From Lytechinus pictus (lineage: Eukaryota), in contig NC_087245.1 of NCBI RefSeq assembly GCF_037042905.1, positions 11,596,001 to 11,660,000 of the forward strand: a stretch of DNA of 64,000 nucleotides. Reading direction: 5' to 3'. Below the pieces are notes generated by a model, which saw only the letters and a list, made by a program, of their open reading frames with translations, was not told the origin of the DNA and made no database searches. This document shows positions 16,401-64,000 of this stretch, in pieces. Made by a program: the position numbers and the translations under genes. Position 1 is the first letter of the stretch. Every line of letters begins with the position of its first letter.

Positions 16401-16539
16401 CTTTAAACTAATTGAATTCAAATTCGTGTTATCACTCTTTTTTTTTCTTTATTCATTTATTTAAGTTTATAACGTCATGAATTGGAATAAGCTTGATGTT
16501 TCAAAATGTAATGTTATATGAATGGTTCTCATTCATTCA

Positions 16540-24647: not shown

Positions 24648-24651
24648 TTAA

Positions 24652-41899: not shown

Positions 41900-42287
41900 A
41901 GGTAAAGCAAAAACTTTTTTGGCACATCGTTAAAACGACGTGTATTTCTGCCAAAAAGGGCAGTAACCGAAGCGGCAGAAAGAAAATATGTTGCAGGCAC
42001 GATGAATATTTATTGTTCCGAGTGGTCTGTTGTAACTCATAATGATTATATCATGATTTCGCTAAGACAAACCATTACCTCATTTCGCACTATCGGAAAA
42101 ATGAACCCTCCGAATTACAAACCCTGTTGCCTCTTTAAGAATCTTTGGAATAACGCCACAAACTCGCTTGCCCCTACTATTTACTCTTCAACGTATTCAT
42201 GGTATTCGGTCATTAATTTTTGGACTACAATTTACGTGTTTCGGAATAACAAATAATGAAATAAATAAATTTGAATTTGAATTTGAA
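41900..42287 (+). mobile_element. Decayed LINE 3' end
   Basis: LWNNA-like motif in ORF 42002..42256, followed by aataaataaa and a (TTTGAA)3 tail. Confidence 0.45.
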
Positions 42288-42666
42288 ATAGTCCAAGAAA
42301 AATAAGGTTTTACCCCAAACAAATTGCAATAGATTTTTTTCACCGCCTTCAGTCCCAAAATGACATGCTAAAAGTCCCCCAAAATATCAGTGGTGGAAAG
42401 GCGTCCAATTTGCATAAATCCAATATAGCTGTCATTGTGAAAATTTCATGTTAATCTTAGTAGTACAAAGGACAAACTTAACTTGCATCTCAACCTTAAA
42501 ATGAATTGACAAGTCGTTACACTTAAGAAATGTTCATGCTTCAATCACTGAAATTTCAGAATTGTTATGATCAGACCAGTGGCTCAAATTCTACCAATAA
42601 TCATGTAAAATTCCCAGCCATTTTGGATATATGCAAACTCTACATCTTTTCTGTATCCATTGACAT

Positions 42667-43969
42667 TAGGGTTGCCAAATTCCCGGGAATTTTCGCAGTG
42701 CATGGAAACTTTCCATGGGAATAAACGGGAATTTTCAAGAAATGTTGGGAATTTTTAAAAAGTAGCAAATTTGTTATATTCACATACAGGAATTGAAAGG
42801 ATTATACCCTGGGAGATGATGATTGATTGTGCTTCGTCAGCAATTAAATATCACAAAAGATATGAATTTAATAACAATCACTAATCTCAATCAAACTTAG
42901 TGCATGTTTTCCCCCTTCATGAAAATGTATTAATCTTTATTTTTTTCAAAGTCAGCCATTATATTAATATTTCTTGCCCCCCCCCCCCAATTTTTTGGGG
43001 GTGGAGGGGGGGGGGGCATCTCAGAAATAAATTAGTAATTTAACATTGTTCGTTCCTGGATCTGATTTTTCCTATTTAAAGACTCAAGCCAGTACCATAG
43101 CTGCTGATGGGATTAGTCTGCTGTGCAAACCTAGTCTGCAGGCACAGAAACATAAATCAACAAGTGGGTCTCCACAAAGACTAGGCACTAACACATACAA
43201 AACTTGCTATTTCCTGAGCGAGAGGGCCTTCGGTACACAAGGCATGAGTAGGCTGCACATTCAGACCCTTAACTCGAGTGAAGGCTTTGCACAGCATTCC
43301 TTGAGTGCAAACCCTTCACTCAAGGAAAGTCGTCTGAATATGCAGCCTAAGGTTTCTGTCAATGACTTGTGTTCAGAAGTTCCCTTTGTTCAACCACGTA
43401 ATAGGTCCATGGTTCAACAGAAAGTTGTATTCGTGCTAATCGTGTGTGAAGGCCCATTTGTGGATCAAAGTTTCAATAAGGGTCTGTGCGTGCAGACTGC
43501 ATGTAGGGGGCACTGTTCTATTAACATGCTATTAAGTAATTGTAAATGGAAGGCAGGTTCTTACATGTATATATATATATAAAAACCTTGGCATTTAAAG
43601 AAAATAAAAAATAGTGTAGTGCACAGTTTTATTTTATGTTCATGTTGAATTAAAAGCTTCATTTTGTATATTATGCTCCATCAAGTTACTGGATACATAT
43701 TTGTATACATGTCCTATAATGTATTTATGTACAGTTTGATGAATATTTTATACCCTGGGCAATTTAAACAATGAAGAATAGTTTAAATACAAATGAAAAT
43801 ATAACATTTGAGGATATCAATTTATAATTTTGTATTTAAAAACACAATATATCACTTTTTGTGAAAAAATGAAAAATTCCCCAAATTCCCGGTAGCTAAA
43901 AGAATTCCCGAAACTTTCTATGGAAATTTTCCAAAATTTCCGGAAAGTTTCCAGCCCTTTGCAACCCTA
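42667..43969. mobile_element. 1.3-kb non-autonomous hAT-like element (TAGGGTTGC...GCAACCCTA)
   Basis: TIRs, ggaaa/ttcc subterminal repeats, and an 8-bp TSD attgacat/attgacct. Confidence 0.85.
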
Positions 43970-44656
43970 ATTGACCTTGAAGCCCTCGGGGTCAAATGTC
44001 ACAACTTTCAATAGGCCTACTTTTCTCTTGAAATTATAAAGGGACCGTACATGCTAAAATTAAACAACTATTTGCGTAACCTATAACGAAATAATGATGC
44101 AATACATCCGATTTTCTAATATTTCGCGGTCAATGATCTTTTAGGTTTTCAATGATCCTTTAGGTCATTGACCTCTAGAGGTCAAATCTGATTTCCTTCC
44201 TTCCTCATATCAAAATGAAGCTTATGGTAGGATACAACACTGATCTAGATGGTGAAAGTTTAATGCGTTAATCATAATTGTTAAATGTGTTATGATCAGA
44301 CCAGTGTTTGTACTACTATTCATGAAAAATTCTCACGATGGCAGCCATTTTTTATTTATGCAAATTAGACGTCTTTCCACCACTTAGATTTTTCTGGACT
44401 TTTATTATGTCTTTTGGGGGGCTTTGTGGAAATCCATTGTGCTGAAATAAAATAGAATGCAATTGTTACACTAAAGGCATATTTATAATAAACCGGTGAT
44501 GCTAAGTGTCAATATTCTAAGATTTTAAGGTCATTGGCATTTGCTATATAGCTCTCAAGGATGAAAGGTCAAAATTCATACACAAAACTCTCTCTCTAGA
44601 ATATCAGGATACCTTGAAAGTCAAAATTAACTAACCAGTTGACTGTTGACCTTTAA

Positions 44657-45244
44657 AGGAGAATGAAACTCTTGGAGCAAGTTAGCTTTTGTGAAAGCAG
44701 AAAAATCAAAGAATAAGATCAACAAAAGTTTGAGTAAAATAGGACTAGCAATAGAAGAGTTATGAGCATTTGAATGTCGAGATCACTAATGCTATGGAGA
44801 TCCTCCCATTGGCAATGCGACCAAGATCTATGATGTCACAGATGAACAACTCTCCCCTTTTGGACACTGAAAATATACCCCAAAACATCTCTTTTTGCTC
44901 ATTCTAATCATAAGACAAACGATTCATCAATGATATAATGTTGTGAAACCTCTGTATATTGTCCTCTCATAAAGAGAACACCTCACCTTGTGATAGACTC
45001 TATGATAAAAGTGAGAATATAAGTGAAATAAGTACTTAAGTAATGAGGGAGTTGTACGTGTGTGACATCACAGATCTTGGTCGCATTGCCAATTAAAGGA
45101 TCTACATGGCATTAGTGATCTCAATATTCAAATGCTCATAACTTTCTTATTATTCATTCAATCTTCCTCAAACTTTCAACAATATGTTTCTTTGATTTTT
45201 CTCTTTGATATGGATTCAGCTGGTTTCAAGGGTTTCATTCTCCT
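44657..45244. mobile_element. TTAA-flanked long-TIR MITE (Kolobok-like), AGGAGAATGAAAC...GTTTCATTCTCCT
   Basis: TTAA at 44653-56 and 45245-48; about 190-bp inverted arms. Confidence 0.9.
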
Positions 45245-45699
45245 TTAAGGTCTTTGAATGTTTTGGTCAGATCAGTCTTTTTACTACTAGGCCTACCAAT
45301 AATCATGAAAATTCTCACGATGTCAGTCATTTTATATTTAAGCAAATTAGACGTCTTTCCACCACTTACTAGACTTCCTAAGTTAGCTAATCGTTTGTGT
45401 TTTTTTTTCATTTAGGACACCCCCCCCCCCCCCACCGTGTAGAAAATCACAATCACTGCCCGATCGGAATACCGATCAATTGACTACCAGAAACCAATAT
45501 CCCACCAATAACACATGACCTTTCATTTTAAACAAAATTTGCAAGAGAATATTTCAATTCATAATATTGAATTTAAATGAAATATTTAAGTTAATTATTT
45601 TTTTAAACATCATGCTGAACAAAAATCTCATACTGTAGCATGTATATCATTGACATAGAAAATCTACCGGGGAAATCCTATCGGGTCTCAGTATCACTG

Positions 45700-46673
45700 C
45701 TGAAGATAATTAATTATTGTCTGTAAAGATGACGGAGAAAATAATAGGCCTCGTCTGTTAGAGAAAATAATACCCTAGCCTTATCTTTTGGATAAAATGT
45801 CGTGTTGGAATGGGGGTTAAAATTACGTTCCCCCGGGGAGGATTGGTCAGGTACTGAACAAGATAATAAACGTGACAATCATTCACACAAAATTAACGAA
45901 TCATTATCCGGAGGGGTGTGTACGGAGGAAATAATGGCACATGGCTCGCCGGATATGCGCTGTGTGTGTATGCACAGCAGTGTTTTTTTCCTGCGTGGGA
46001 TCCCGATTGCTCTTTCTCCACACAGAATTAGTGTTGCGGATATTTATTTGGAAATATTTTGCGGAATATATCGTCTTCAATCAATCTTTAATCAGGTATT
46101 TAATATATTTTGCCACTGAGCAATTAATTTCCGAATCGACCGACACATTATCCTGTATTTTGTTTCGAAGTAACGCAATCTTTGTTCAGACATCGCGTGA
46201 TTTTTGTGCAAGAGAGAGGAAGCAACCAAAATGAAACGTTTTTCTGTCGTGTGTGTGAGCGAGAGACGAAGCGAAGGAATAGATCTCGATCTCCACTTTT
46301 CATTTTACAGTCATGATTTGGGATTTAGATTGATACCAAATTCTTAAGATTATTATGTGATATATGTGTATGTATTGATTGTATACATGCTTGCGGACAG
46401 TCCTTTTGATTTTTTTCTTTGATCGAACTTGTGAGTTTGTTTTAGAGTAGGAAGAATGTGAGCACTTTATTTTGAGTTGGAGCCTCCGATCTGCGGCTCT
46501 GCCTCTGAAAGTGGAGAGGGAGAGAGGAATCATGAACTCAAAAAGTTGTAAAAAAAAGTGATCATCGCCTTTATTTGTCAATCGCCTTGGGGTCTGAGAC
46601 AATCAAGAACGAGTCTTTGCAGGGAACATTTAGATCTAGACTGTATTTAATATTTTAATCTATCTTTTTACAG
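45700..46673 (+). promoter_or_regulatory. Probable promoter / 5'UTR exon region of UBE2E
   Basis: Unique, relatively CpG-rich sequence immediately upstream of the ATG exon. Possible 5'UTR donor ACTT|gtgagt at 46430/46431. The TSS cannot be determined. Confidence 0.45.
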
Positions 46674-46701
46674 GATTGTTTGCAGGCTATTGAAAGGCAA
46701 A

Positions 46702-46910
46702 ATGCCGAATAATCGAGCGACTGAGAGCCAGCCGTCGGGAACAACACCTTCAAATCCAGCTGCTCCAAGCTCATCGACTACGACGAGCAGTCGACCATCT
46801 TCGGCTGGCAGTGGTGGTCGACGAGGTGGGCCTTCACAGGAAAGAGGAAAACCGAATCATTCTATGGGCAAACCAGGTTCCAAGGCCCCACTTAGCTCAA
46901 GCGCCAAAAG
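46702..46910 (+). CDS. UBE2E: Ubiquitin-conjugating enzyme E2 E-class (UBE2E1/2/3, Drosophila UbcD2-like), first coding exon: Ser/Thr/Gly/Pro-rich N-terminal extension ending ...KAPLSSSAK(R)
   Basis: Acceptor tatctttttacag|G (exon starts 46674), ATG at 46702, donor AAAG|gtttgc at 46910/46911 (phase 2). It joins in frame to the 52010 exon to give [24 protein letters not shown], the start of the UBE2E UBC domain. Confidence 0.93.
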
Positions 46911-48154
46911 GTTTGCCAATAATTTCTCCCCTCTTGATACCGATTTTAAATGGTATTTACAGTCAGCATGCCGTGAACAATCGGAGGTGATTTTAGTGTG
47001 CGTACCGTGCCGTAGCACTATGCGATCAATAGCATTAATCAGAAAACAGCCATTGACATGATGTGTATGTAAAGTCCACTTCACCGCTCCACTTACTGGC
47101 GAGCTACCTAATTTGCATATAAGCTAAAAACTGTTATCTCTCGAAAATTAGACTCTGAATAACCAATATGTATATGTTTTTGGGTCCCATTCACTAATAT
47201 AGATCGCAATTTTCCATTTATATCAGGATATATGTTACCATAAGCGAGAAAATCGCAATTTTCAGATCAGAAGCTTATAACTCGCACACGCTGTGTACAG
47301 CATGCACGGTGCACGGCACAGCAAATTGAGCCCTCCTTGGTCGTGAGTCGGGGTTTGCGATTTTGTGTGTGGATTGAAATCTTGAAAGAGTGACTCACAC
47401 AGGGCGAGAGTGATGAACTAATCACAAGACGTTTCTTTTGTTCCATAGTTAATTCTATTTTGTACTCGGTTTGAAGTCTTTTATGTACTTTTGTATGGAC
47501 AAAGTTTACAAAACAAAATTTGTAATAGCCCCAAGCCTTTATACCTGGCCCCATGGCCATACATTACCCTTGTTCTTGTAGTATATATGTCGTATAGCGC
47601 ATGGCAGCCCAGCCTAACACATTGTAGTTTTGTACATTGTTGACATTGACAGGAGCAGATGGGGGCTTTGAGATAATGGTCTTAGCCCCCAAATCAAAAA
47701 CAGTTCTAACTTTGAACGGTTAGTAGGATCCATGGTTCCCTTCCAGACAATGTTTGCCTCCATTTTCCTAGAATTGCCTGTTAATAAAATAATACAATTT
47801 TTTATGTTGCATCAGATTTTTGCATTCGTTAAACTTACTTGAAGGGGCTGGTCAACTTGATTTATGTGAATTTTTATGTGAAAAAGTAATTTTCCATTCT
47901 TTTTTCACATTTACATACTTTCTTACAAATCTTAAGACCTGTGACTGTCTTGACTGCACTTTCTGTTTGCCTTTTTTTTTTTTTTTTCATATTCCGGTAA
48001 TAAGCAAAGCCATTAAAGATCCATAATGCTTTCTGAGACAACCACGTGTACATGTAGGATTATTAACAAATATCCATAGGTGTGGAACATTACATTTGAA
48101 ACCCTTGCCTAAGTCCTCTCAAGAAGAAGACTTAGGCCAGAAGTCTTCTTCTCA

Positions 48155-48391
48155 AATAAATTTTGCCCAATACGCCATGATCAAATTTTTTGGCTCATTT
48201 CACCACTGGTTTAACGAATGAAGAAATAGGCCTAGATCTTAACAATCCATCAAATTAAATGTCTTCTCAAGAAGAAGAGTTGTAATTTGATGGATTGTGA
48301 AGACCTAGGCCTACATGTATTTCTTCATTCTTTAAACCAGTGGTGAAATGAGCCAAAAAATTTGAACATGGCGTATTGGGCAAAATTTATT
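48155..48391. repeat. About 237-bp near-perfect palindrome in a UBE2E intron
   Basis: aataaattttgcccaatacgccatg...catggcgtattgggcaaaatttatt, centred on tcttctcaagaagaaga. Confidence 0.9.
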
Positions 48392-49205
48392 CTAAAAAGT
48401 TGCGAGCATGCAAACATTTAGACATTTATATATTGAAAAAAAAATCAAATTTTGATTGATTTTGATAAGATATTAAGAAAGTAATCTTACACATTGTACA
48501 TGCATTCAAGGCTCTACACTTATTTTTTTTCTTGGTGGTCCAATCAGTCCACCACAATCATCAATTTCATTTTTGGGTGGCCCGCGAAGCAAATTTGGCG
48601 GCCCTTAAACAATAGAAAACAATTTATCAAAACTTTAGTAGCCCAATCAGGTCACCAAGTGTGGGTTTTTACATAATTTTGTTGGCCCGACTCTCATTTT
48701 TAGTTGCCCCTGGTCACTGCTACAATGTAATGTGGAGCCCTTATGTATGTTGCCTTTACATGTATCTCTTTCCTTTTCTCCGTTTTCTTTGTCATGATTT
48801 TTTTTAGGGGGGGGGGGGAAGCACCCATCTGTATGCACATTAAAATACTTACATGTGCCACTTTCATACTGACAGCCGAAGTGGTGTAACTCCGGAGTCC
48901 AGACTGAGTTACTCACTTTGGGGGGCAATATGAAAATTCTAGGATTATTTCGATCCAGATTCAAAGCGGAGTACGGTACTCAACCCACTTTGAGAAGAGG
49001 GTTACAAACGGAGTTCGTCCGCAACGTCTATCTCGCGCGTAACTTCATTCGTTTCCGCATGTATGGCGTGAACTCAAAGGCCAATCAAAGGGCATCCAGA
49101 GCCATGACCTTGTATTAATTCAGGCCTTAATTTTCATTAGTTATTTGGTCCTCTATGTTATGATGGTGCATCAAATTCCAGGTTATGACATTGACATTGG
49201 TTTTA

Positions 49206-50667
49206 TTGTCTCACCTGCATAGCAGAGTGAGACTATAGGCGCCGCTTTTCCGACGACGGCGGCGGCGTCGTCAACACCAAATCTCAATCCAAGGTTAAGT
49301 TTTTGAAATGACAGCATAACTTAGAAAGTACATACATGTATGGACCTTATACTAAATAGGTTCATTAATTTATTGCGGATTGAAAGAATCGCTAGAGGGT
49401 ATTCATTTGTCTCGCAATCTATATAGACCTAGTTCATCAAACTTGGCCATAAGGTTAATCAAGTATTACTGAACATCCTGCCTGAGTTTCAGGTCACATG
49501 ACCAATTTCAAAGGTCATTTAGGGTCAATGAACTTAGACCATGTTCGGGGATCAACATCAAAATCTTAACCTAAGGTTAAGTTTTTGAAATGTCATCATA
49601 ACTTAGAATATACATGTATATGGACCTAGTTCATGAAACTTGGACATAAGGTTAATCAAGTATTACTGAACATCATGTTTGAGTTTCACATCACATGACC
49701 AAGGTCAAAGGTCATTTAGGGTCAGTGAACCTTGGCCAAATTGAGGGTATCTGTTGAATTACCATCATAACTTTGAATGTTTATGGATCTGATTCATAAA
49801 ACTCAGACATAAAAGTAATCAAGTATCACTTAACATCCTGTACAAGTTTCAGGTCACATGATTAAGGTCAAAGGTCATTTAGTGTCAATGAACTTTGGAC
49901 AAATTGGGGGTATTTGTTGAATTACCATCCAAACTTTGGAAGTTTATTGGTCTACATGTAGTTCATAAAACTTGGACATAAGAGTAATCAAGTATCACTG
50001 AACATCTTGTGCGCATTTCAGGTCACATGACCAAGGTCGAAGGTCATTTAAGGTCAATGAACTTTGGCCATGTTGGGGGGGGGGGTATTTGTTGAATTAC
50101 CATCACACATGTATCTCTGTAAGTGTATTGGTCTACATGTAGTTCATAAAACGTGGACATAAGAGTAACCAAGTATCACCAAGCATCTTGTGCGAGTTTC
50201 AGGTCACTTGACCAAGGTCAAAGTTCAATGGACTTTGGCCATGTTGGGGGTATTTGTTGAATTACCATCATAACTCTGTAAGTATATTGGTCTAGTTCAT
50301 AAAACTTGGACATAAGAGTCATCAAGTATCACTGAACATCTCATGTGAGTTTCAGGTCACATGACCAAAGTCAAAGGTCATTTAAGGTCAATGAAATTTT
50401 GCCATTTTAGATGTAATTATTAGATTGCTGTTATAACTTTCAAAGTTTACAGATATAGTGTATAAAATGTGGATATAGGGGTAATCAAGTATCACTGACA
50501 GGTTTTAGGTCACATGATCAAGGTCAAATGTCAATGAACGTAGTATTGTATCGTTATATGAATGGTGTTTTTTGTGAATAATGATTTTATAGTAGTTTTC
50601 AAAGTCAGCACTGCTGCTATATTGAATTGCGTGATGCAGGTGAGACCGCCAGAGGCATTCCACTTGT
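49206..50667 (+). mobile_element. Helentron-associated/DINE-1-like element with about 7 internal ~163-bp tandem repeats
   Basis: Subterminal IR gtctcacctgca (49208) / tgcaggtgagac (50635), a GGC-rich mini-satellite/hairpin near the 5' end, a 3' small hairpin region, T-rich flanks and no TSD. The aatcaagtat register recurs at 49457, 49654, 49817, 49986, 50167, 50320 and 50483. Confidence 0.75.
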
Positions 50668-50911
50668 TTTCAATCGGTCTACATGTACATGTACCTCCCA
50701 GTCTACATGTAAGTAATGGTCTACTGTCAAATTGATCAAATTTCCGTGGGGAGTGTGGTCTACGTTACTCTTGGTCTAGTGTAATTCTCATTTCTAGTCT
50801 AATGCTGAGTTGGTCTAATTTCCACTTTGTCTTCATGTACATGTACATGTATTTTTAGTTGTCAAATGAATACCTCATTCATAACCATTTTGAATAGTAC
50901 ACACATGTACA

Positions 50912-51578
50912 CAGAGGCGTCGATCCTGGGGGGCAGGGGGGGCGATCGCCCCACCAATGAAAATATTGGGGGGGCAAACATATCATTTTGCCCCCCCAAT
51001 AATTCCGGATATGCATTAAAAAAAAACAAGATTGTAATGTTCAGCAAGCGAGATTGAGATACACAACTCGTTCTTTATTTAAAATCGTGCTCAAAATGTC
51101 CGCTTTTCAGATTGGAATATAAAAATTTTCAGCTCGCGCTTCGCGCTCGCATCATTTCTGTAGCAAAAACCCATACTTTTCATGATTAAATTGGTGAATG
51201 TAAATGTCCCATTTTCAGTTCTAAGCCTCAAAAGAACTGCTTCAATTTGCAATCATCTTTTCTTGGATATATAGCTTGTTCTTTATCAAAAACGTCCAGT
51301 AAACTGTCATTTTTTCAGATCGAAATATCAAAATTTTCAGCTCGCGCTTCGCGCTCGCATCTATTCTCTTTTAGATACAAATCTTAATCATTGGTACCAA
51401 AAATGCTTAGAATATCAAGTTTTCAGCTCAGAATATAAAGAAATTTGAGCTCACTCTCGGCACTCGTACTATCTGTGTAGTGAGATACGTGTCTGTGTCT
51501 CATGAGTCATACATATATATAGATATATACATATATATATATATATATGTGTGTGTGTATATATAATATATATATATA

Positions 51579-51623
<45 letters not shown>

Positions 51624-51694
51624 TGTACGATCGAGCGCCTTTGGAACGTTAATGATTTCGCCCCCCCAATCTGAAAAATGGATCGACGCCCCTG
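50912..51694. mobile_element. hAT-like MITE (CAGAGGCGTCGATCC...GGATCGACGCCCCTG)
   Basis: Perfect 8-bp TSD catgtaca (50904-11, 51695-702); internal tttcagctcgcgcttcgcgctcgcat repeats (also at 20393-20520); TA/TG microsatellite at 51510-51610. Confidence 0.9.
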
Positions 51695-52009
51695 CATGTA
51701 CATGTGTAAGTGTTAAAAGATCAAGCGGTTATTAGATGTCATGGGTGAAGCTTAAGGCCCTAGCTAGAAATTCAGTAAAATTAATGGGGTATTGGGCATA
51801 TTAAAGTTGATGGATACCATGTGAGACAAGAGTCACAAGACCCACTGTTTCCCCAGCTAATAAAAACAAATTTCCTGAAATTCAGTGACATTCCATGGAA
51901 TCTTCAAGTTCTTTTTTTAATTAGATAATTTAATAGAGATTCAAATATTTTACACACTGTAATATTTGTCTTTCTTTCTTTCTCTTTTCCCATTTTCTAT
52001 TTCATGCAG

Positions 52010-52060
52010 GATCCAGAAGGAACTCGCAGAGATAACCCTCGATCCACCACCAAATTGCAG
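52010..52060 (+). CDS. UBE2E: UBE2E 51-nt internal exon encoding (R)[16 protein letters not shown](S)
   Basis: Long polypyrimidine tract + ttcatgcag|G ATC CAG AAG GAA CTC GCA GAG ATA ACC CTC GAT CCA CCA CCA AAT TGC AG|gtaagt, phase 2-2. The peptide is the canonical UBE2E helix-1 sequence. The next exon (expected SAGPKGDN...) was not found in the window. Confidence 0.96.
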
Positions 52061-53049
52061 GTAAGTGTTAATTTTTCTGGGTTTTTTACATATCTTTATG
52101 ACGATATGTGGCGTGCCAATAAATCCTCCGGAGCCGACTGGCTTCTGCAGAAGCGAAATAGCAGTATTTACTATTTTTGTCTCTAAAAGCATTGTTTTGG
52201 ATCAATTACTTTTGCAAATTTCAAATTAGTAATGGACAACAGAAGCCCTCGTTTTATCTGCATGCCGACACTGTGCGACACAACATAAAAATAATCATGA
52301 TAAAAAAGACATGCAATTTTATAATTACTTTAAAAAATGACTAATTTCACAATTTTTCTGACAATTTGCGCTATTTTAGAGCTCACTCTTTGTGAAAGAT
52401 GTTTAAATATGGCCATATTTTGTATAATAATTCATGTGTGTTCTTACTGGAATCTCAGATAATGTATCTTTTAGTATTACCGTACTCAAATTATGGTTAT
52501 TTCTGTTCGCTGATACATGTACCTGTTAAGCCTACAAAATGTACTAAATTTAATGCATCATGAAGAACTGACCAAACCAAATTAGAATCTAATTTTATCT
52601 TGTTACTCCGAGAAACTGTCGTCAAATAATGTTTCTATTGTTGAATCACCTGTTTAAAACACACTATCTTGTCCTTGTCTCGTCACATGGGGTTAAAGCA
52701 GGCTGGTACTATTAAAACAGGTATATTCCTAATTTCCTATCCTGCCTAAGACATAGGTCTGCGTTAATAGCGGTACTCAATATCGCAAATTGCATTGTTC
52801 GTATACCGCGCACAAACTTTTCTACTTTGTTTGATGTTTGTTGTTTTTATTGCTGATATTATTCTGAAAGTTCCTGATTTTTTGAGAAATTTATTGGAGT
52901 ATGAAAAATAAGTATGAAGAATATGTCATTTCTTATCAAATGTTAACAGCCAATCATAAAATAGCAATTTGATGATGTCATCAGTCTTTGAAAATACTTT
53001 TTTTTAATTCAACAGTGAGATTACCATTAGAACCAAATTTAACCTTTAA

Positions 53050-53585
53050 AGTGATCATTTCACTTTGTTCTGATTTAAAAAATTTCATTTGGTTCTTGAA
53101 AATGGGCTAAATATTTATAGGCTTTTAGTTTAGTGTAGAAACACCATTCCAAAAGTTTCAAAGTATAATATCTACAGGAACAATGTTAAAACCTTGGAGA
53201 TGTAAACCAAAGTTTAAAAATAATTGGGGGTTGGTTTCAATGACTATGTACATGTATGTATACAGCAAATCTGTGCACCACAACTCAAGATGAACACAGC
53301 ATGACCAACATGTGTACAGTGCAGCTAATAATAGCCTGTGTATAAGAGACACACACAGCAGAAGGCAGTCAACATAGCCAATAGAATTTTTGATTGGAGA
53401 AAACTGGTCATAAGCTGACCCTGTCTACTAGACGGTTCTCAAAATAAATTGCTACTTGTACCTAAATTAGAGTTTTTCATCCTATAGGTTTTTAAGGACA
53501 TATACAGGCACTCATAAAAATACACATGTTTCATCTCAGTTTGAGAATTGTTTAAATCAGCTGCTTACAAAGTGAAACGATCCCT
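53050..53585. mobile_element. TTAA-flanked MITE (AGTGATCATTTCACTTTG...CAAAGTGAAACGATCCCT)
   Basis: TTAA at 53046-49 and 53586-89; degenerate long TIRs. Confidence 0.75.
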
Positions 53586-53690
53586 TTAATACAAAAGTTT
53601 GAGTAATGGGTTTTGGCATACTTTCGATCCATTCTTGTCCACTCTGTGGCGACGTCGTCAACTTCAATCTTAACCAAGGTTAATTTTTTT

Positions 53691-54174
53691 TTGGTCTCAC
53701 CTGTATACATGTAGCAGAACCAGATTACATGTACAGGTGCCGTTTTTCCAACTGCGGTGGCATTGAAGACATTGAGCACTAAGAGCGCTATTACCATTGC
53801 TATAAGAGACTTTGTCGTAATCTGCATAATATAAAAACTGTAAATGGACCTAGTTCATGAAAATTTCGACATTCAGTATAAAGGGTAATAAAGTATCACT
53901 TAACACCCTGCCTGAGAAACCCGGTCAGCTAAGGACAGTGCTGTTCAATCAGAGATAAGCACTCATGAATGGCTACAGCTGGGGGGGGGGGGGGGGTTAG
54001 GCAGAAAATTTTGCGCATGTGTGTGTGTGTGTCACTGTGTGAAAAGGGGGAAAAAATAGTATGGGGTTAGAAAATCTTGCGTAAAAAGTGTATTTTTTCA
54101 GAGTCAGCACTGCTGCTAAATTGAATTGCATAATGCAGGCAACTAGGCAAGACTGCCAGAGGCATTCCACATGT
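53691..54174 (+). mobile_element. Short decayed copy of the 49206 Helentron/DINE-like family
   Basis: Shares the 5' gtctcacctg...gcaga...gccg.tttttcc, ggacctagttcatgaa, and the 3' agtcagcactgctgcta...gccagaggcattccac. Confidence 0.75.
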
Positions 54175-54254
54175 AGCCAGTAGTAGGGTCCATGTTCAAG
54201 CCATTGGCTAGAGTGCTATCTCCAGGCTGTATAATTTGAACAGATACAGTAATA

Positions 54255-54816
54255 CCGTATTTACACGCTACACCAACTTGCGGGGCAGACCTGCCTCGTG
54301 GAGAAGTTTTGTCCCGTGGATTATTCAGCTTGCAGATCAGACTTGGCTAGCCGTGGGAGACAAACAGACAGATCAGTGGATACATTTTCGCAGACACCCA
54401 CAGTGGTCTGTCAGAATATGCATGCCCACGAAATGAAGAACTGAAAGTAAAGCTGGTAGCTTGTTATCTGTTTCATCTATTTTTGCTCGACACATTTTGG
54501 GAATATTACTAAAAAAGTATGTCTATCATCATGCATGCAGCTCACATGAACGGACGAGATTTACGTCATGAAACGTACTCTTAATCTTGAAGTTGCTCAT
54601 CCTGGGCAGACTCGACTTTGTGTTAACACAGTGAAAAATTGCCATTTCTGCTCCGGCTTGCGGGTGTGATCCTAGTATTTTGGCGGAGCAAAAAAAGCAA
54701 GTCAGCTACAGCTCGTGAAGCAAGGTAATCGCATTTACATGCAGATAAAAAAAGGCGAGTCAGACTCACCTGGCGGGTTAGACCCAAGAGCCGGGGTAGG
54801 TGTAACGTTAACACGG
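54255..54816. mobile_element. Tc1/mariner-superfamily MITE with CCGT termini (Tc2/pogo-like)
   Basis: TA|CCGTATTTACACGCTACACC...GGTGTAACGTTAACACGG|TA. Confidence 0.65.
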
Positions 54817-55980
54817 TATAAATTTAGACGGTGAAAAGGGTATCAAAATGAATATAAATATCAAGAAGTGTATGTACATGTAGGTCTTTATTTCAACAGC
54901 CTTGATATGAGTAGGCCTTTAGGTCTACATGTAATACATACATGTGTATACCATATCATGAAAATGGAATGGTTGAGGCATTATTACATGACAGATACAT
55001 GTACCTGAAATTGGGTACGCTGACATTGAAAGATAGAGGCAGACCCTACTTGTAGTTTACTTGTTGAGGGTCTACAATGTATTTTGAAAGTCCAACACCC
55101 TGATTGTAGACATATATCACAACTCATGTTGATTGATGTGCATATTCATGAACATGTAATGGATTCAAGGCAACTCTCCTGCTTGAATTACATTGACAAT
55201 TCAAAATTTGTCTGTACATGCATGGGAGTACTTGTACTGTATGCCTACAAGACTAAACATTTGAATTAAAAAAAAAACCTTTAAATTTTTACAGTGACAA
55301 GAAAAGATGATGTGACTTCAAATTTGTAGGACCTACATGTACATGTACATGTTGTGTTTGAATAAATATGAATCACTTTGGTACACTATAGAAATCAGTA
55401 TATTATTATTACCGGTATTATTTATTACAAGCAGAATTTGAGAATACAATGTGAGTAATAAAAGGTGTCTGTATTCATGGCACATGAGCTCCTTCCCATA
55501 TTCTCAATGCTTGTTTTTTGTATCTTCAATACAGTTGTGCAATATTTACACTTGAAATGTCACTACAAAACTGATACTGTGGCCTATGTTTGAGGGTAAA
55601 GACATTCTGCCAGAGGCCGAACAATTTGAGACTGTGTAATATGAAAATTGCGTACTGTGGAAATGAAAAGGGAGCTGACAAGATACAGTACGTGTATGCT
55701 TATGTACAGTGTGCTGTATTGTCACTGAGTTGCCGAATGGTCTTTCACTGATTCCAGCTTAGAAAACTGATTCCTTGATTAGAACTTCAAAGCAACAAGT
55801 ACATGTATTGCCAAAAAACATGGTTCAGAATATTATAGTTCATTCATGAGTGACAAATTTTGCCATTGTTGTATGTACGTGTACATGTAGATATTTACAA
55901 GCATGAAGAAACCACTAGATAGAATTCATACATGGTACATGAGATGCACATGTCAGCTTGTAAAGAGGAAATCACACATG

Positions 55981-57075
55981 AGGTGTGTTCAATGTCAGTT
56001 TCCACATTTAAACACAACATGAATCATGATTGAAAATTTAATTACAAAACACAATATACATGTAATGAGAACCCGGGGGGGCCACTTACATTGACGAGTA
56101 GATACCATGCGCGACCAAAAAAACATGTAAAAAGGATGTCTTTTTCAAGATAGGGCACGTTACGTACGTAACGTAATAAGGGTGTCAAAAACACTAAAAT
56201 AATGAAAAAAGGGTAGTTTTATCTATTTTTCGATAGGAAAGCTACGTGTTTAGGGTCAAATTTGCGAGGGTATAAAAAAATTAAGACTAAAATGTTTTAT
56301 AAACGATGTACTTTTTGCCCCAAGAGTCAACACTACGTGTTTAGAGTACAATTTGCCCGAGGTGTTGTGATGTGGGGCTGTACTAAACCCAATGATGTAG
56401 GTAAAACCGACGACCGACGTCATCCGTGGCATAACAATTGAAATATCGCTGTACTTGTTTAGGGATTCAATTCAGGGAATACTTGCCAAGAGTTTCGTTT
56501 TGTTTCCAATACTTGTTAAGGGTAGAGTTTCACACGCCAGCACTTGTTAAGGGGTGCATTTTCAGAATATGGAAAATCCGTGTTTAGGGTGCTTTTCGAG
56601 ACCCCAAGGTCGCGCATGGTATCCACTCGTCAATGGAAGTGGCCCCCCGGGAATGAGAAATAAAGGGTGTGTTCAATGTCCTCCATTCCCGGTTGTAAAA
56701 GTAAACATCTTTCCAATCACGTTTGGAGGAAAATTTAAGCTTTGAAAAAGATGCGCTTGTAAATGCTATCAGCTCACATTTTACAACCTTCAGCATAGTG
56801 AATGCATCATTGAACACGATTGAGTTTTGAAATGTCTTTTAATTTGCTCTCGCAATACCAGCAGGTGCCAGAATTGACCTTTCTTGTGATGGGACAAACT
56901 GTGCACTAAAGCTGCCAGCTAATGATTGCGGGAAATTTAAAGATGATCGACAAATAGCTTTTTGTTTTCAACACTTAACAGTACACTGCTGATCGTGTTT
57001 GTGTTCTGTTGTTTGTAATTGAGTTTTCAATTATGATTCAGGTTGCTGTTTAAATTTGAAAATTGACATTATACT
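55981..57075 (+). mobile_element. Harbinger-like MITE (same family as 63436-63916), split by a nested MITE
   Basis: Colinear with 63436-63916 on both sides of 56072-56651. Confidence 0.8.
56072..56651 (-). mobile_element. hAT-like MITE, same family as 32561-33114
   Basis: Perfect 8-bp TSD aatgagaa (56064-71, 56652-59). Confidence 0.93.
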
Positions 57076-57295
57076 CATCATTTGTTGGCTGTTCATTATG
57101 TTTCAGAAATTCCCCACAAAATTGTAATCAGGCACACATCTGCCATGCCCATGAGCCCTGAGCACATAGGGGAACTGCTACAAAAATAAAATTTCAATGT
57201 CGAATGAAGGGATTTACAACAGTAAGAGAATGACATTCTTCATATTTGCACTAGGAGATACATGTAGATGTTCATGTATTGTAACGCTTACATGT

Positions 57296-57788
57296 ATATG
57301 CTTTTCACACATGATTTGCTTAACCCCATACTATCCTTAACCCCGGACTAGGCGTATCCTTAACCCCATACTATCTTTGTTAGGTTTCACACTGTCTTTC
57401 TTAACCCCATACTATTTGCTTAGCTGGGGTTAATGCTTTAACCTTGGACTATCGTACAGCTCATGAATATTGATGACCTTGCAACACAGCATGATTAATG
57501 TGCAATTTCGACTTCTGTGATTGGCTAATGCATAGCCCCACTTTTCCTTAGCCCGGTTTCGTTTCACACTGCATCTCTTAGCACCGCAATAAGCTGGCTA
57601 ACCCTGCTTTTTTTCAGGGCCAGATAGTACCATACTATTTACCATGCTAGCCCACTTTGCTATAAAAACGTAGTGTGAAAACGAAGTGGGCTAAGCTTAA
57701 CTCCGGGAAGTTGGTGGGGATAAGACCCCCCCTTAGCCCCACCTATTTCCCGTGGTGAAGGAAAATAAGTGCAGTGTGAAAAGCATAT
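57296..57788. mobile_element. MITE with 15-bp perfect TIR (ATATGCTTTTCACAC) and CTTAACCCC repeats
   Basis: TIR seen at both ends. Confidence 0.75.
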
Positions 57789-60198
57789 TTCACTTCTATT
57801 ATACACATGTATGTACACCTGTCTCTATCTTTGAAAGTACGTATTCAAGAAATATCTGAAAACTCTGCCATTGAATCAACAATCTTTCCGTTCCAAATCA
57901 ATGTGTAGAGCGCTGAGAAACAATTATCTTTGTGAGAGCGTGATATAAATGAACATTATGCCAAAATCCACCCAACAGATTTCCCTTCGCAAATTGGCAA
58001 TATACATACAGTATACTATACACATATAGCTACTCTCTGAGGTGACAGAATCGGCATGAAGTCGGTGGCATCATGCTCCTACATGTACATGTACATTTAG
58101 GATAGATATATGAGAATGTGGAGAAGTTGCTGCATGAAACAATTGTTGCATGTTTTCTGGTCTTGTCGTACATGTACATGTGTCAATCCTCGACACTCAG
58201 CCTTATTGCTTAGTTTAGTGGACATAGAATCAGGATTTGGAGCAGAGATAATATAAATGATTGAATCATGCACCCAGTGCATGATCATCTTTTAATCATC
58301 TTTCTGCTGACAGTGGTTCTGCCCTGTTCGGCGGAATATTGACTCTAAAAGTTACTATCATGTTTTCAATTTTGTGGTGAGACTTTCATAAATGTTTATT
58401 CAGAGATAATATTTTTAGACAAACCCAGGAATTGCAAAGAGCTGAGTGGTTGCATGGGGGGGGGGGGGCATGCTTTTGAACTTAGATATGAAAATTGTAT
58501 TATTTTTTGTTGTATTCTATGGAACAATCAGCATTTTGGGAAAATGAAACAACAGTGCTTTGAAACAGATTTCTTCTATTTTAATCAGCATCATGCTTTG
58601 GTTAGGTTAGAGATTTGAGTATAAGAAGGGGGGGGGGGCAAGGCAAATTTTAATGTAAACATTCCCGGTAGGATGCTGAAATGTCACAAACAGCCTATTT
58701 TCCTCATGGACATTCAACATGCATGAACATGGAGATGGTTCGAGTAGAATATATGTCAAGGGACATGCCTTTTACTGCTGATAGAGACAAGAATTGCCAT
58801 GGACAATTGATGTTCCTCTACTCCCTCCTGGAGTATATTATGCCTCATATTAATTGATTGTAGTGACGAATTAGTTATTTAAGATAATCAAACATGACCA
58901 ACAGATGGCATGATGATGATAGGGAGGTGGTTACTTTTGTTTTTGGCTGTTATCATTATCTTGAAAGACCATTTCTTATCTACAATGTTGCATACCGGTA
59001 TATATTGATAGCTTGTTTTTAAATGTCTTTAGTAGACATGTGTGCTGCTCCCTCTTTCCACCCCATTAGGAAAAATAGCTTATTACAATGATTAATTCAT
59101 TTATTCAGGATGAAAATAGAGCTTGGAAGATCACAAGGCCATATCTTGCCAGCTCAATTTCACAATGTGGCAATGTTTGTACACACATCATACACAGATA
59201 TTTAAGCCATGCCCCCAAAGTGAATGCACACTGTATGTACTAGCAGTCTGTGTGTAATAGTAGTGTGTGTCGCTGAACAGGGTATTGTTGACATACCTCA
59301 CAGGCAGACTGTCATTAGAGTATTTCCAGAGGGAGTAAGTTCAATAAGCATAGCGGAACATAAACCCAGAAGCATCACCTGTTAGGTAGTAATTTGTATT
59401 GTTTAATTCTGCTAAGCACCTTTTTGTCTGCATGCATGTTCGCAGAGAAGGACATCATGCTTTATTAGCACTTGTAATTTAATGATGGGATTTATCTATC
59501 AAACTTGCTTATGCTTGGCGATAAAGACATATTTATGTGCCTCTTTCGATATTGAAAGCCCCTGTTGCTGGTTGCATTGAAGTCTAAAATAGTGAAGAAG
59601 TTATATCATTTTTTGCTAGATGATAGATATTAAAGGCTGTTTTGTGGGAAAACGGTGGGAATCTGAAACAAGATCACTTTGGTTATTTAATTTTATCTTG
59701 ATGTAGTGACATCATATTTAGAGAATTTAGATTCTAGCCTTTGAATTAATGATTAGACATACATTGTAGGACAGTCTAGTAATATTAAAAAAAAATCATA
59801 TATCTGCAGTACTTGGTAAATCTGCATTTCAACAACCATGGCTATATTATTAGTGAAACCTGCATGTATAAATAAAAAACACAGTAAATTGCAAATTTGT
59901 CTATTGCCAACTCGTCCACTCATCACATGGCCTACCTTCATTTGGTTTTAATGCCATTCCGTCCAATATTTGGACTAACAACCATTTGGTCCAATCATCA
60001 CTTCATCAATCAATGGTTCGTCTATGACCATTTCGTGTCATAACCAGTTGGTCTGATGTCCATTTTATTTTTATCTATGTCGTCCAATTAGACCAAGTGG
60101 TATATGGACTAAATAACAATTGGACCAACTGGTTACTAGACAAAATGGTGAGTTAATGAAAAGGCAGTTAGACCATGTAGATATTGGACAAAGTGATG

Positions 60199-60753
60199 CC
60201 CGCGGAGGGCACTCAGTATATAATGCATAGTGGGTATGTGCCGCGGAGGGGACCCCCATTTTTACACTCAAATTTCCGTTCCAAGGCATAGCATTTTTGT
60301 CTTATTGAGAAAAAGAACAAAGAAAGCCGCTTCAAAGCATAGCATTTTCTTCTTATCGAGAAAAAAAGAAGAAAGAAATCCGCTCCAAAGCTTCGCATAT
60401 TTTCCGTTACGCCGTTCCGGCCGTATTGATCTGCTACAATGAGCCGCAGTTTGGTGAAAAGCAGCCGCAGAGCGCTGTCCAACCATTGCATCTGCGCTAG
60501 CGCACCCGGCGCCCGTGCCGCCGGGCTATAGCTGCATGCACGTATGTCCGTTCCATAGGGATGAATACGCAATCACACGCAGGCGACCCGTTCCAAAGAC
60601 CCCCGTTTTCACAAACATTTGTCGTTCCGAAGCCCGTTCCGAGGACCCTCCTTTTTACAATAAGCCCGCTCCAAGGCCCCCGTTTTTTGTCTCGCCCGCT
60701 GCACATACCCACTACTTTTTTGGTCGAGTGCCCCCCCCCCCCCCCCCCCCGGG
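60199..60753. mobile_element. hAT-like MITE (CCCG...GGGCACTC / GAGTG(C)nGGG) nested in an older foldback element (~59915-60830)
   Basis: Perfect 8-bp TSD aagtgatg (60191-98, 60754-61). Host arms aatgccattccgtccaat / attggacggattggcatt. Confidence 0.88.
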
Positions 60754-60922
60754 AAGTGATGTTAGACCAAGTGATAGACAAGTTGATAATTGGACGGATT
60801 GGCATTTATAGACCAATTGAAAATGGACTGTATAAACGAGAAAAGTATAAAGCTTAAAATCTTGTGGTGCTGATGTTTCTATGTTTCAGCCCAGATTATA
60901 TCAGCATTTTAAAACATGTTTA

Positions 60923-61451
60923 CATGTGTGATGGGGGGACCTAAAGCTACGCACTTTGTTTTCAAACAATAAAAACTATCCCAATTTTAATATTTCAACA
61001 AATATCTTTCACTAATTTGTGGCAAACATTCTAAAGATCATTAACCAAGAAGAAAATATCGCAAAACTCACTAATACGAAAATCCCGCCGTGTTTTCCGA
61101 ACACCTCTTGATTTCGCCACCCGATGAAGAAGGGGTCCTAAAGCTACGCACTCGATTTATCATGCAAAAAAATAGTATTTCCTGTGCCTCAATTTCTAAA
61201 ATATATTCATATTATTATAGGAAAAAATGAAATTTAAGCGAATATAACTCCAAAATTCCAAACAGTTGTTGGTTTCTCTGCATTTAGAGATTTACTGCAG
61301 CCTCTGTAGAAAAAAATTGAATAGGAATCGTTCGTCACTCTGCAGTCACAGTTCCACACACAGAGTGCGCATTTGCCATAAAAACTGTACGCGCGATGAG
61401 TGGTGCGTAGCTTTAGGACCCGCGCAGCTTTAGGACCCCCTGCCATACATG
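60923..61451. mobile_element. MITE with GGGG(A/T)CCTAAAGCTACGCAC terminal and internal repeats
   Basis: Motif at 60935 and 61133, inverted at ~61404-61440. Termini CATGT.TG / CATACATG. Confidence 0.7.
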
Positions 61452-61887
61452 AAGTTAAAAAAATGGTTGCATCCTTTGTTATTTTCATTTACATGTATAC
61501 ATCAATTCAAATGCTGATTGTTAACTTGCAAAAAAAAAGAAGTTTTTGATGGTTGTTACTCCAGAATCGTGGTTTTGTGGGAAGTTTAAAGAAGACCACG
61601 ATCTAACACATTCAAATGATGTTACATGGTACATGCTTCTGGTGTGTGAATGAAGGTCTGTGTGCATGTACGGTCACATGGTTCTAATGGCCATCAAAAT
61701 ACATGTGATTAATAAGTACTCTCGTTAATACTGCTCTTAGGGGATAATCGCTGACCATGAAGTCCAGCAATAGCTGATGTCCATTTATCATCACCATGGT
61801 TGAAATTCTATAGCTACACATGCATGTCAAGTATTAACAAAATATTTGACAATACTGTGCAATAATTTTGGGAGAACAGAAAATGAA

Positions 61888-62035
61888 GAGGTGCCGTGGT
61901 CTAAGGTGCCTGGCTATACATGTACATGGAAAGTCTGGGGTTCGATCCCTGGCCACGTTACCTACAGTATGCTCTTTTATCATGCATTCAAATAAATGAA
62001 AATGCTTTACACATTATTGGTCACTAGGTGTGCAC
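61888..62035 (+). mobile_element. Decayed tRNA-derived SINE head
   Basis: gccgtggtctaagg...ggggttcgatccctggccacg. Confidence 0.5.
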
Positions 62036-62186
62036 TTGTTTCTTTTTTCTTTTTTTTTTCAAAGAAAAAAAAATGGACTGAGCTTTAATAATCCCTTACT
62101 ATAGATGGGGCTTACTTGCCATTTAGGTCGCTTTTCGCGTGTGAGAAAGGATATGAGTCTTGGTGATAATTCGCTAATATTCTTTA

Positions 62187-62829
62187 AGTTAGGGTTACAC
62201 CGGAACAGAATCAGTGGAGAATCCATCTAAATATTCGTATTCGGGTGGTTTCGGGAGTATTCTGTTCTCCCGCCACGAATGCAATTAAATTTGGGAGGGA
62301 TTCGGGAACATACCCAGAGGAATTCAGCTAGTTTTTAAGTGTTCAAAACGAGCCGAATAACCTCTAAAATACATGTACTCTGAAAGTGACCACAACGAAT
62401 TTCATTTGGGTCACATACAGCATGTATATTCGGATGACAGTCGGTTGGATTAGGGGAGGAATTTGGAGTATTCTGGGCAGACTCTGACCTATCCGTATCA
62501 TTCCGGGCCATATTCGTTCCGATTCCGGTCAATATTCGGCTGTAATCAGAGCAATTGGGTCATATTGGGATGATTCTTGGCACCTTCAAGTTGGCTTGAT
62601 TCTTGCCAATAGTTGGGTGGTATTTGGCTTTAATCGGGATGGCTAATATCGTTTCGGCGATTCTGTGCTGAATTGGGACCTTTTCTGGATCCATTTGCTC
62701 TATTCGGGGAGCTCCCCGAGTCAGAGAAGGAAAGGTTCCGAAATCAGCAAATCCATCCGAGTCTGGCCATATTCGGGCAGAATCGGTCCGAATTTATTCA
62801 GGAGAATTCAGTTTTGGTGTAACCCAACT
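62187..62829. mobile_element. MITE with AGTT(A)GGGTTACACC TIRs and TTAA-like flanks
   Basis: agttagggttacaccggaacagaatc / gaattcagttttggtgtaacccaact-ttaa. Confidence 0.7.
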
Positions 62830-62900
62830 TTAAGTGTGAAAATGACAGTGGGACTTAATGCATAGTTTTTATTAGATCGGTTTATGATATTGGTAACATA

Positions 62901-63402
62901 CAGTGCGTCCCAGAAAAAAGGAAACCGGGATTCCCATGTACAAATGTATTTTTCCTTCAAAAGCAAATGAATTAATTCAGTTATTCCTCTTTATTTTGAT
63001 GCCCATTAATATGAGACAAACACTTCAAGCATTAATTAGCGAGACGAGTTTGAAATTTTAATGTCAAAACCAGGTTGCGCAGAAAAATTTGACATGATTG
63101 ACCCTGCTTATTCGACGATTAGCTCATTAGCATTTCTTTTGTATTCTTAAGATTCTCTCACTGATCCCTGAAATGAAAGTGGAATCAGATTCTCGCGTGA
63201 GTTTCTGTGCAATTCGTTTCTAATATACCTCAATATTTATTGTTTGTAATCTGCCATACATGAACGACTTGCTTAGCTGTTGGTTTCATATCCGAGATTA
63301 GATTCCACCCTTGCCATGAGTATTAAATTCATAGGAATAACATATTTAATAATTGTGAAACCTATCTCTGAAAACAGGTTTCCTATTTTGTGGGATGCAC
63401 TG
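62901..63402. mobile_element. Tc1/mariner-type MITE with CAGTG termini and TA TSD
   Basis: TA|CAGTGCGTCCCAGAAAAAAGGAAACC...GGTTTCCTATTTTGTGGGATGCACTG|TA. Confidence 0.88.
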
Positions 63403-63435
63403 TACATGTAGTAGCAAGCTGACAATCTTGACTCA

Positions 63436-63916
63436 GGGTGTGTGCAATGTTGATTTTCAAATTTAAATAGCAACATGAATCATGATTGAAAAGGCAATTA
63501 CAAAACGTGGATATGAGAAACAAAGGATGTGTTCCATGTCCCCCATTCCTGGTAGTAAAAGTAAAATCATTCAGATCGTGATTCAGAGGAAAATTTAAAA
63601 CGGTGAAAAGGATGCATTTGGGAATGAGATCAGCTCTGATTTCAGCATCGTGAATGCAACACTGAGCACGAATAAGTTTTGAAACGTCTCTCTTGCAATG
63701 GAAGCCTACACAAGCACGTGTCAGAATTGATGGGTCAAACTGCGCCGTAAGCTGCGTAACGAGAGTCGGAAATTTATAGACAATCGACGTATAATCAGCT
63801 TTATATTTTCGACACTGAACGGTGCATCCCTGATGGTGTTTGTGTTCCTTGTGTTTTCAAATTCAATCATGATTCACGATTCTGTTTAAATTTGAAAATC
63901 AACATTGAACAGACCC
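63436..63916 (+). mobile_element. PIF/Harbinger-like MITE
   Basis: About 55-bp TIRs GGGTGTGTGCAATGTTGATTTTCAAATTTAAA... / ...TTTAAATTTGAAAATCAACATTGAACAGACCC; flanks TCA/TAA. Confidence 0.85.
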
Positions 63917-64000
63917 TAAAATGGCTATAGATGCTATACATGCAAATGTGTTAAACACTGTTTGTCTGCAGTGATGTTTGCACAATAGCATAAACACACA

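Follow-up and report, generated by a model that had tools for sequence, protein, structure and literature searches.

Within a 64,000-nucleotide (nt) stretch of Lytechinus pictus DNA (NC_087245.1; hereafter the window), the palindromic octamer TACATGTA is concentrated in the body of one gene, UBE2E, where 33 of its 38 exact copies form a dense zone (48,049-63,410; hereafter the field). A Tc1/mariner-type excision scar is the likely origin of the octamer, with the source element present as a candidate only. The fuller reading, in which transposon scars accumulate through a bias toward the body of a methylated housekeeping gene, stands in our judgment at about an even chance; three internal controls favor the link to such a gene body, and one counter-example and the restriction to one gene pair weaken it.

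Because most excisions leave nothing behind that can be counted, it is difficult to measure how often natural DNA transposons excise in the germ line and which targets they prefer; a uniform kind of scar that has become fixed at a few percent of TA sites would provide such a record directly. If scar density tracks germ-line transcription or methylation, it would also offer a test of targeting versus tolerance for transposons in methylated invertebrate gene bodies, a question that bears on why gene-body methylation exists. To this the window contributes its own internal controls: a developmental gene body with few octamers, a promoter zone with none, and a second palindrome whose density stays flat.

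Octamer density switches within UBE2E

Five exact copies of TACATGTA fall in 1-46,910 (at 504, 9885, 35788, 40754, and 43562) and 33 in 46,911-64,000, corresponding to densities of 0.107 and 1.93 per kb, an 18-fold difference. Merging tandem copies leaves 5 versus 29 loci and a 16-fold difference (binomial p 1.5e-12). A preliminary description of this DNA had listed the same five upstream positions, counted about 30 copies in 48,000-63,500, and claimed a more than 10-fold contrast, all of which is borne out here. It had also placed the switch at the gene body, from 46,911 onward. The best change-point lies at 48,048, with a log-likelihood gain of 27.5; none of 2,000 random placements gained more than 10.2. 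Its support interval extends from approximately 46.9 to 48.05 kb and has 46,911 at its edge. The switch is thus within UBE2E, with the first motif located about 2.1 kb past exon 1 and 1.1 kb past 46,911.

Whole-window dinucleotide shuffles (n = 100) produced a mean of 1.59 octamers (maximum 6) versus the 38 observed. When shuffling was confined to 1-kb blocks (n = 200), 0.59 copies (maximum 3) were expected in 46,911-64,000 and 1.06 (maximum 5) in the left part, where TACATGTA is therefore at most mildly enriched. These block shuffles rule out plain dinucleotide bias as the source of the excess, including the local CA/TG content that the preliminary description had named as the explanation that would defeat it. 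An order-5 Markov expectation (19.2) was dropped as circular, since the octamers contribute their own 6-mers.

Copies with one mismatch follow the same pattern: 35 versus 11.8 expected on the right and 33 versus 28.1 on the left (40 shuffles), and these old copies have the same edge as the exact ones. A second unit, exact or decayed, adjoins 7 of the 29 loci (p 0.012) and would come from re-targeting or slippage. By hand calculation, 29 loci among 1,165 TA sites in this one gene correspond to a scarred fraction of about 2.5%.

The one-mismatch classes in 46,911-64,000 are uneven, with CACATGTA found 10 times, TACATGCA 7 times, and TACATATA 3 times (about 1 expected each). Within the TA steps, T-to-C changes outnumber C-to-T changes, which is unexpected in AT-rich DNA. 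TACACATGTA occurs 3 times versus 0.06 expected; some of these copies may be longer scars or slips.

The literature we searched yielded no report on TACATGTA in animal genomes, a weak blank, as subscription journals lay mostly outside the search. A metagenome scan for an urchin repeat returned a single locus (2,027 bases, 1 octamer, CpG observed/expected ratio [o/e] 0.41) that is no more than an anecdote, and an IMG/VR scan for the doubled octamer found 0 of 120 loci with at least 4 octamer loci, a result uninformative on the field.

The octamer behaves as a six-letter insertion at TA where a paralogue allows comparison

At 6 of the 29 loci, representing about five events, the octamer corresponds to a bare TA in a paralogous copy (48,312; 49,953; 50,134; 49,611; 53,706; and 53,726). 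The added letters, CATGTA, are constant and are not copied from the flanks. These loci lie in a palindromic element, a tandem array, and a repeat copy (Table 1). Within the tandem array, 49,953 and 50,134 share a homologous TA and probably record one event, the unit at 49,611 is six letters longer than its sister units (alignment read by hand), a decayed six-letter insertion is found at 50,106, and the unit at 49,333 is eight letters longer, an ambiguous case. In line with the footprint-generating process of the preliminary description, the octamers behave as insertions at TA at the six checkable loci; the remaining loci have no empty paralogue or an uninformative one.

The six-letter form is dominant, with words of the +4 and +5 type near chance (20 versus 13.0 and 5 versus 2.05, respectively). 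Across the flanks of 26 independent single loci, T at +3 and G at +4 are favored; TG at +3/+4 occurs in 10 of 52 flanks versus a 6.9% background (p 0.003, post hoc), to which decayed neighboring units could contribute. This preference resembles the Tc1 target consensus, CAYA-TA-TRTG.

Internal controls and CpG composition

The DNA upstream of UBE2E, with which the preliminary description compared the field, is not all intergenic: 1-17,233 is the body of a PRDM14-like gene. This gene body contains 2 octamers in 17,233 bases, the same rate as between the genes (3 in 28,667 bases; p 1.0) and far below that of the UBE2E field (p 1.7e-8). A gene body alone is therefore insufficient for an octamer field, and a rule embracing any gene body is ruled out. 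Judging by the families to which they belong, we take UBE2E to be broadly expressed, as a housekeeping gene, and PRDM14 to be restricted in urchins.

A second control is found within UBE2E itself, as the field starts about 2 kb past the start of the gene, beyond its CpG-rich promoter. The promoter-proximal 2.1 kb contains no exact octamer (P 0.02 at the field rate), and no one-mismatch copy was found in 45,901-48,000.

The control word TAGGCCTA, a TA-bounded palindrome, occurs upstream 6 times versus 0.33 expected, approximately 18-fold over chance (2,398; 19,344; 23,730; 40,512; 44,012; and 45,288), and these upstream copies are evenly spread. It shows no switch, with 6 copies versus 2 (48,227 and 48,306, which occupy the two arms of a single element), a distribution that differs from that of TACATGTA (Fisher p 0.001). 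TAGGCCTA may be the footprint of another family of elements, one with GG...CC ends. Its excess upstream argues against upstream DNA being simply too young to carry scars.

The PRDM14 body has a CpG o/e of 0.81, the DNA between the genes 0.79, and the stretch 45,901-47,900 a value of 0.87, versus 0.53 in 47,901-60,000, 0.85 in 60,001-64,000, and 0.62 in 47,901-64,000 overall. With octamers removed, TpG/CpA o/e reaches 1.27 in 47,901-64,000 versus 1.06 to 1.14 upstream. Considering only DNA that is unrepeated within the window, CpG o/e is 0.61 on the field side and 0.80 upstream. The intronic DNA is thus CpG-poor and TG/CA-rich, as the preliminary description had it, although the deficit is patchy and the contrast with upstream DNA is incomplete, given an equally CpG-poor patch at 42,001-45,900 (0.52). 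Within the field, CpG-rich 1-kb bins hold fewer motifs (rho -0.64, 16 bins, p 0.008), and the repeat-rich 60,001-64,000 carries 1.0 motif per kb versus 2.4 per kb (p 0.11).

Among repeat copies inside the field, the partner copy shows TG/CA at 16 of 26 CpG versus 15 of 45 GpC controls (p 0.027), and among upstream copies, decay affects 13 of 38 CpG versus 15 of 54 GpC (p 0.65). The raised CpG decay in the field suggests, with modest strength, the mark expected of germ-line methylation. CpG depletion and decay in introns behind a CpG-rich promoter, a trait of methylated housekeeping genes, is likewise present at modest strength. The description of UBE2E as a housekeeping and probably methylated gene accordingly draws support from the sparse PRDM14 body, the empty promoter, and the CpG decay, and loses some from a CpG-poor patch that has a single motif.

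Proposed origin and comparison with known systems

Tc1/mariner elements insert at TA and duplicate it (PMC3878927), and they excise with 2- to 3-nt 3' overhangs (PMC3878927, PMC4490562), two-nt in the case of Tc1 (PMC4490562). A cut-and-paste element of this type with CA...TG ends would insert at a TA, duplicating it, and then exit in the germ line, whereupon end joining that retains two letters per end would leave TA-CA-TG-TA, which is TACATGTA. The trait expected of such a footprint, an origin at TA with the TA duplicated, is seen at the 6 of 29 loci with a one-TA empty paralogue. The +6 scar would need either fill-in across unpaired ends that keeps both overhangs or elements ending in CATG. 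Fill-in across unpaired ends is the job of X-family polymerases. Both the transposon origin and the keeping of overhangs by fill-in are inferences.

This cycle would have run about 16 times more frequently in UBE2E past the promoter-proximal 2 kb, where a broadly expressed gene is expected to have elongation-linked, CpG-methylated chromatin. Insertion biased into such chromatin, through tethering or access, would be the likeliest cause; biased excision or repair would look identical. Tethering of integration by LEDGF and H3K36me3 (trimethylation of histone H3 at lysine 36) is a known precedent.

The ratio of decayed to intact copies (0.72 to 0.82) corresponds to a mean scar age of about 0.09 to 0.10 substitutions per site if scars arose in one burst, or to a constant rate of gain over about 0.3. 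Decayed copies are restricted to the zone of the intact ones, and the bias is therefore long-standing. Were point mutation the sole route of loss, scars would arise per TA at roughly one-fifth of the per-base substitution rate.

Among known systems, a close likeness is with the Tc1/Tc3 footprints of Caenorhabditis elegans, whose TA target, CA...TG ends, two-nt overhangs, and scar built of end letters between two TA (PMC13148408, PMC4490562) are those proposed here. However, the typical worm scar is +4 and somatic, with varied repair in the germ line, whereas the urchin scar is +6 and uniform and has been inherited and fixed. The footprint C(A/T)GTA left by Sleeping Beauty and Frog Prince (PMC3878927) is also a uniform end-joining scar with a duplicated TA, but one that is +5 and asymmetric, with insertion that is fairly random with respect to genes. 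The scar lengths of canonical Tc1 (+4) and Sleeping Beauty (+5) are thus not those observed.

A preference for active gene bodies is known for piggyBac, Tol2, and lentiviruses (PMC3878927), although this concerns fresh insertions in cells and is much weaker than 16-fold, and a tether remains putative here. Invertebrate gene-body methylation provides a further parallel in its CpG-depleted introns, expressed genes, and spared promoters (PMC10294446, PMC8857917). Intron methylation climbs with expression in Strongylocentrotus purpuratus (PMC10294446), and in cnidarians, methylation of intronic transposons peaks in genes that are long and highly expressed (PMC8857917). These papers, in the parts that we draw on, are concerned with how resident elements are methylated and deal with neither excision scars nor biased insertion.

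Two further systems resemble the octamer in part. The Minos footprint also adds six bases at TA, four of its letters coming from one end, but a scar of that kind would here require CATG-ended elements, and a search of the window for TA|CATG-ended elements found none. HIP1, the highly iterated palindrome of cyanobacteria, is likewise a single 8-letter palindrome at 1 to 2 per kb; it arises by substitution and genome-wide, whereas the octamer arises by insertion and is confined to one gene. The six-letter length differences and the 16-fold patchiness set the octamer apart from a HIP1-like word.

At its boldest, the proposal is that an urchin TA-targeting transposon reads elongation-linked gene-body chromatin (H3K36me3 or 5-methylcytosine) and repeatedly enters and leaves housekeeping introns in the germ line at about one-fifth of the point-mutation rate per TA, leaving a uniform scar whose density is a fossil map of germ-line transcription. 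We put this forward tentatively, as a speculative extension. If true, TAGGCCTA, from an untargeted family, would be a built-in control, transposons would seek methylated gene bodies and not merely be methylated there, and old germ-line chromatin domains would be readable from assemblies alone. The scars would also be a sizeable source of six-base indels in urchin introns. From the DNA letters available here, the more cautious suggestion is that scar density may record germ-line transcribed, methylated chromatin.

Evidence that weighs against methylation-biased transposon scars

Several observations count against the joint reading of transposon scars and a methylated housekeeping gene body. The scar itself is unusual, since the Tc1 scar is +4 in 78% of cases in worm soma (PMC13148408), and germ-line scars are heterogeneous both in worm (PMC4490562) and in rice, where 8 of 94 are perfect (PMC4423477). 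That worm and rice germ-line scars are far more varied is the main oddity for a transposon origin. Sleeping Beauty, moreover, inserts fairly randomly, with 31 to 39% of insertions in genes (PMC3878927). One intact candidate element in the field versus none upstream is no enrichment, and no transposase was identified among the 24 window open reading frames (ORFs) of at least 110 amino acids (aa).

The insertion evidence is also limited in extent. At 21 of the 29 loci there is no informative paralogue or the locus is outside the alignments, the alignments around 56,057 and 61,917 resolved no empty site, and two copies alone leave insertion versus deletion unpolarized. In addition, the far end of the intron that holds 21 of the 33 motifs is out of view, and exon 3 is the last exon of the L. 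pictus model P0001.

As to methylation, five pairs of upstream and intronic paralogues show no significant polarity of CpG decay (7 versus 4, p 0.55). The 3.9-kb patch at 42,001-45,900 has 1 octamer (P 0.007 at the field rate), and therefore CpG poverty alone is no predictor of the octamer; the CpG poverty of this patch may have been brought in with repeat fragments. The sample is one gene pair, with the methylation state and expression of both genes presumed, which is too little to establish the octamer as a sequence-only marker of germline-active chromatin across the genome, the role that the preliminary description envisaged for it. Finally, mammalian PRDM14 is a germ-cell factor (PMC8481613), and the same role in urchins would cut against a plain rule of germ-line expression.

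Alternative explanations

The scars could be real and the field a local patch, produced by local hopping or by a replication or compartment domain that lies near UBE2E by chance. A single boundary in a single window, with the right edge beyond view, is compatible with this. We nonetheless consider it unlikely, as no more than about 1 kb separates the edge from the end of the CpG-rich promoter zone, one-mismatch (old) copies have the identical edge, and the reported ranges of local hopping, 100 kb to 15 Mb (PMC2874221), are too wide for such an edge.

A nontransposon source, that is, a host nuclease or repair pathway that acts on TA sites of transcribed chromatin, or a transposase reaction that aborts there, would account for the excess of scars over intact candidate elements in the field (29:1), for a scar more uniform than published germ-line footprints, and for the missing TA|CATG-ended element. 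On the other hand, target duplication combined with Tc1-type ends predicts TA-CA...TG-TA, and a constant insert that is not copied from its flanks requires a donor. To our knowledge, there is no host activity that adds a constant six letters at TA, and we regard this source as improbable.

We assign a similarly low probability to a preservation bias, under which scars formed evenly, upstream DNA was turned over faster by fresh insertions and deletions, scars survived only in old intronic DNA, and CpG loss and scar number both measure age. The scarcity of motifs in the CpG-rich bins of the field and the lower density in 60,001-64,000 point in this direction. Against it stand the upstream excess of TAGGCCTA, itself a putative insertion that shows no switch, and the old upstream repeats, which, with arms or copies 68 to 81% alike, hold 1 motif in 6,403 self-repeat bases.

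It is very improbable that methylation wrote the octamer by substitution, through CpG decay of TACGCGTA-type words or a HIP1-like conversion. The field is CpG-poor, and its two commonest one-mismatch classes, CACATGTA and TACATGCA, are one C-to-T step away from the octamer. However, six-letter differences between filled and empty copies contradict substitution at six loci. The CpG precursors TACGCGTA, TACGTGTA, and TACACGTA are absent from the 46,910 upstream bases, CACATGTG and GACATGTC are absent from the field and AACATGTT occurs there once, and shuffles give just 0.6 copies. An origin by CpG decay is therefore rejected. A selected protein-binding site marking expressed genes, although suggested by a dense palindrome tied to one gene, is scarcely credible for a word that breaks up repeats, is missing from the promoter, and has lost letters at the pace of a neutral clock (35 one-mismatch copies).

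Genes and mobile elements of the window

Table 1. Coordinates of the genes, control regions, and repeats discussed in the text
Feature	Position	Strand	Remarks
Dense TACATGTA field	48049..63410		33 exact copies, 29 loci, 4 doubled (TACATG)2TA
Promoter-proximal zone	45901..48048		CpG o/e 0.87 (45,901-47,900); no exact octamer
CpG-poor patch (counter-example)	42001..45900		o/e 0.52; repeat fragments; upstream of UBE2E; 1 octamer
UBE2E exon 1	45941..46095	+	tblastn 100% over 52 aa; donor site read; true 5' end may differ
UBE2E exon 2	46674..46910	+	Start codon (MPNN) at 46,702
UBE2E intron 2	46911..52009	+	Bounded on both sides; 12 exact octamers, all past 48,048
UBE2E exon 3 (RIQKELAEITLDPPPNC)	52010..52060	+	UQ_con domain begins here
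Presumed UBE2E intron 3	52061..64000	+	21 exact octamers; far end presumably outside the window
PRDM14-like gene body (control)	1..17233	-	2 octamers; CpG o/e 0.81; rest past left edge
PRDM14-like coding exon 1	17,233-17,211	-	Start codon at 17,233; 8 codons
PRDM14-like first intron	14.9 kb	-	Between coding exon 1 and exon 2
PRDM14-like exon 2	2,353-1,821	-	Beyond the 14.9-kb intron
Palindromic MITE-like element	48155..48391		One arm TA, other TA+CATGTA (48,312)
Tandem units of ~163 bases	49271..50541	+	Filled sites 49,953 and 50,134 versus empty units
Repeat copy with two filled sites	53695..53750	+	53,706 and 53,726; paralogue at ~49,205-49,250 has two six-letter gaps
hAT-like element	50912..51694		8-base target duplication CATGTACA; superfamily label from duplication length
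Tc1-like MITE	62901..63402		Termini CAGTG...CACTG between two TA; candidate donor kind

MITE, miniature inverted-repeat transposable element.

The identification of UBE2E in the preliminary description was right: exon translations match L. pictus proteins at 100% identity, and Pfam UQ_con is present in the L. variegatus relative. The window offers no match to residues 87-212 of that L. variegatus protein, and the far end of intron 3 therefore presumably lies beyond 64,000. We observe that P0001 has an in-frame 61-residue extension upstream of MPNN, which includes exon 1, and that its reading frame runs through the donor site of exon 3 and terminates there, which looks like a truncated annotation. 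The PRDM14-like gene and UBE2E are arranged head to head, about 28 kb apart, and a GC/CpG-rich patch is present near 18,530-18,900.

The field contains one intact TA|CA...TG|TA element, the Tc1-like MITE of Table 1, which fits the CA...TG inner letters of the octamer and whose right TA carries a six-letter insertion (63,403); CACTA-type elements also end in CA...TG. A Pfam scan of 5 window ORFs for transposase gave 0 matches. Scans of public sets for the MITE ends gave 1 viral and 4 prokaryote matches with an inverted partner never better than 4 of 14 mismatches, consistent with chance. The hAT-like element, labeled from its 8-base duplication (PMC3878927), was inserted into a preexisting TACATG array, and some scars are therefore older than its insertion.

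Other mobile elements are found on both sides of the field edge. An element at 42,668-43,969, with ends TAGGGTTGC...GCAAACCCTA and an internal inverted repeat, includes an octamer, one of the upstream five, that may have arrived with it; a 183-aa stop-free frame within it (43,031-43,582) has no Pfam match. Two copies of a CpG-rich element, 88% alike, are located between the genes (32,569-33,114) and in a UBE2E intron (56,073-56,648), where the copy splits an older repeat. This pair has kept 24 CpG, with 2 decayed in the intronic copy and 0 in the other, and contains no octamer. Copies of a tRNA-headed element resembling short interspersed elements lie at 24,651-24,870, 28,460-28,770, and 61,888-61,960, the intronic one having TACATGTACATG in its head. 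Long palindromic MITE-like elements with TTAA-type bounds are present at 19,778-20,348, 24,062-24,651, 41,252-41,467, and 44,648-45,252. Finally, the presumed intron 3 includes two TA-flanked inverted-repeat elements, at 57,299-57,785 (TGC...GCA) and 60,230-60,712 (GTG...CAC), the first of which adjoins an octamer.

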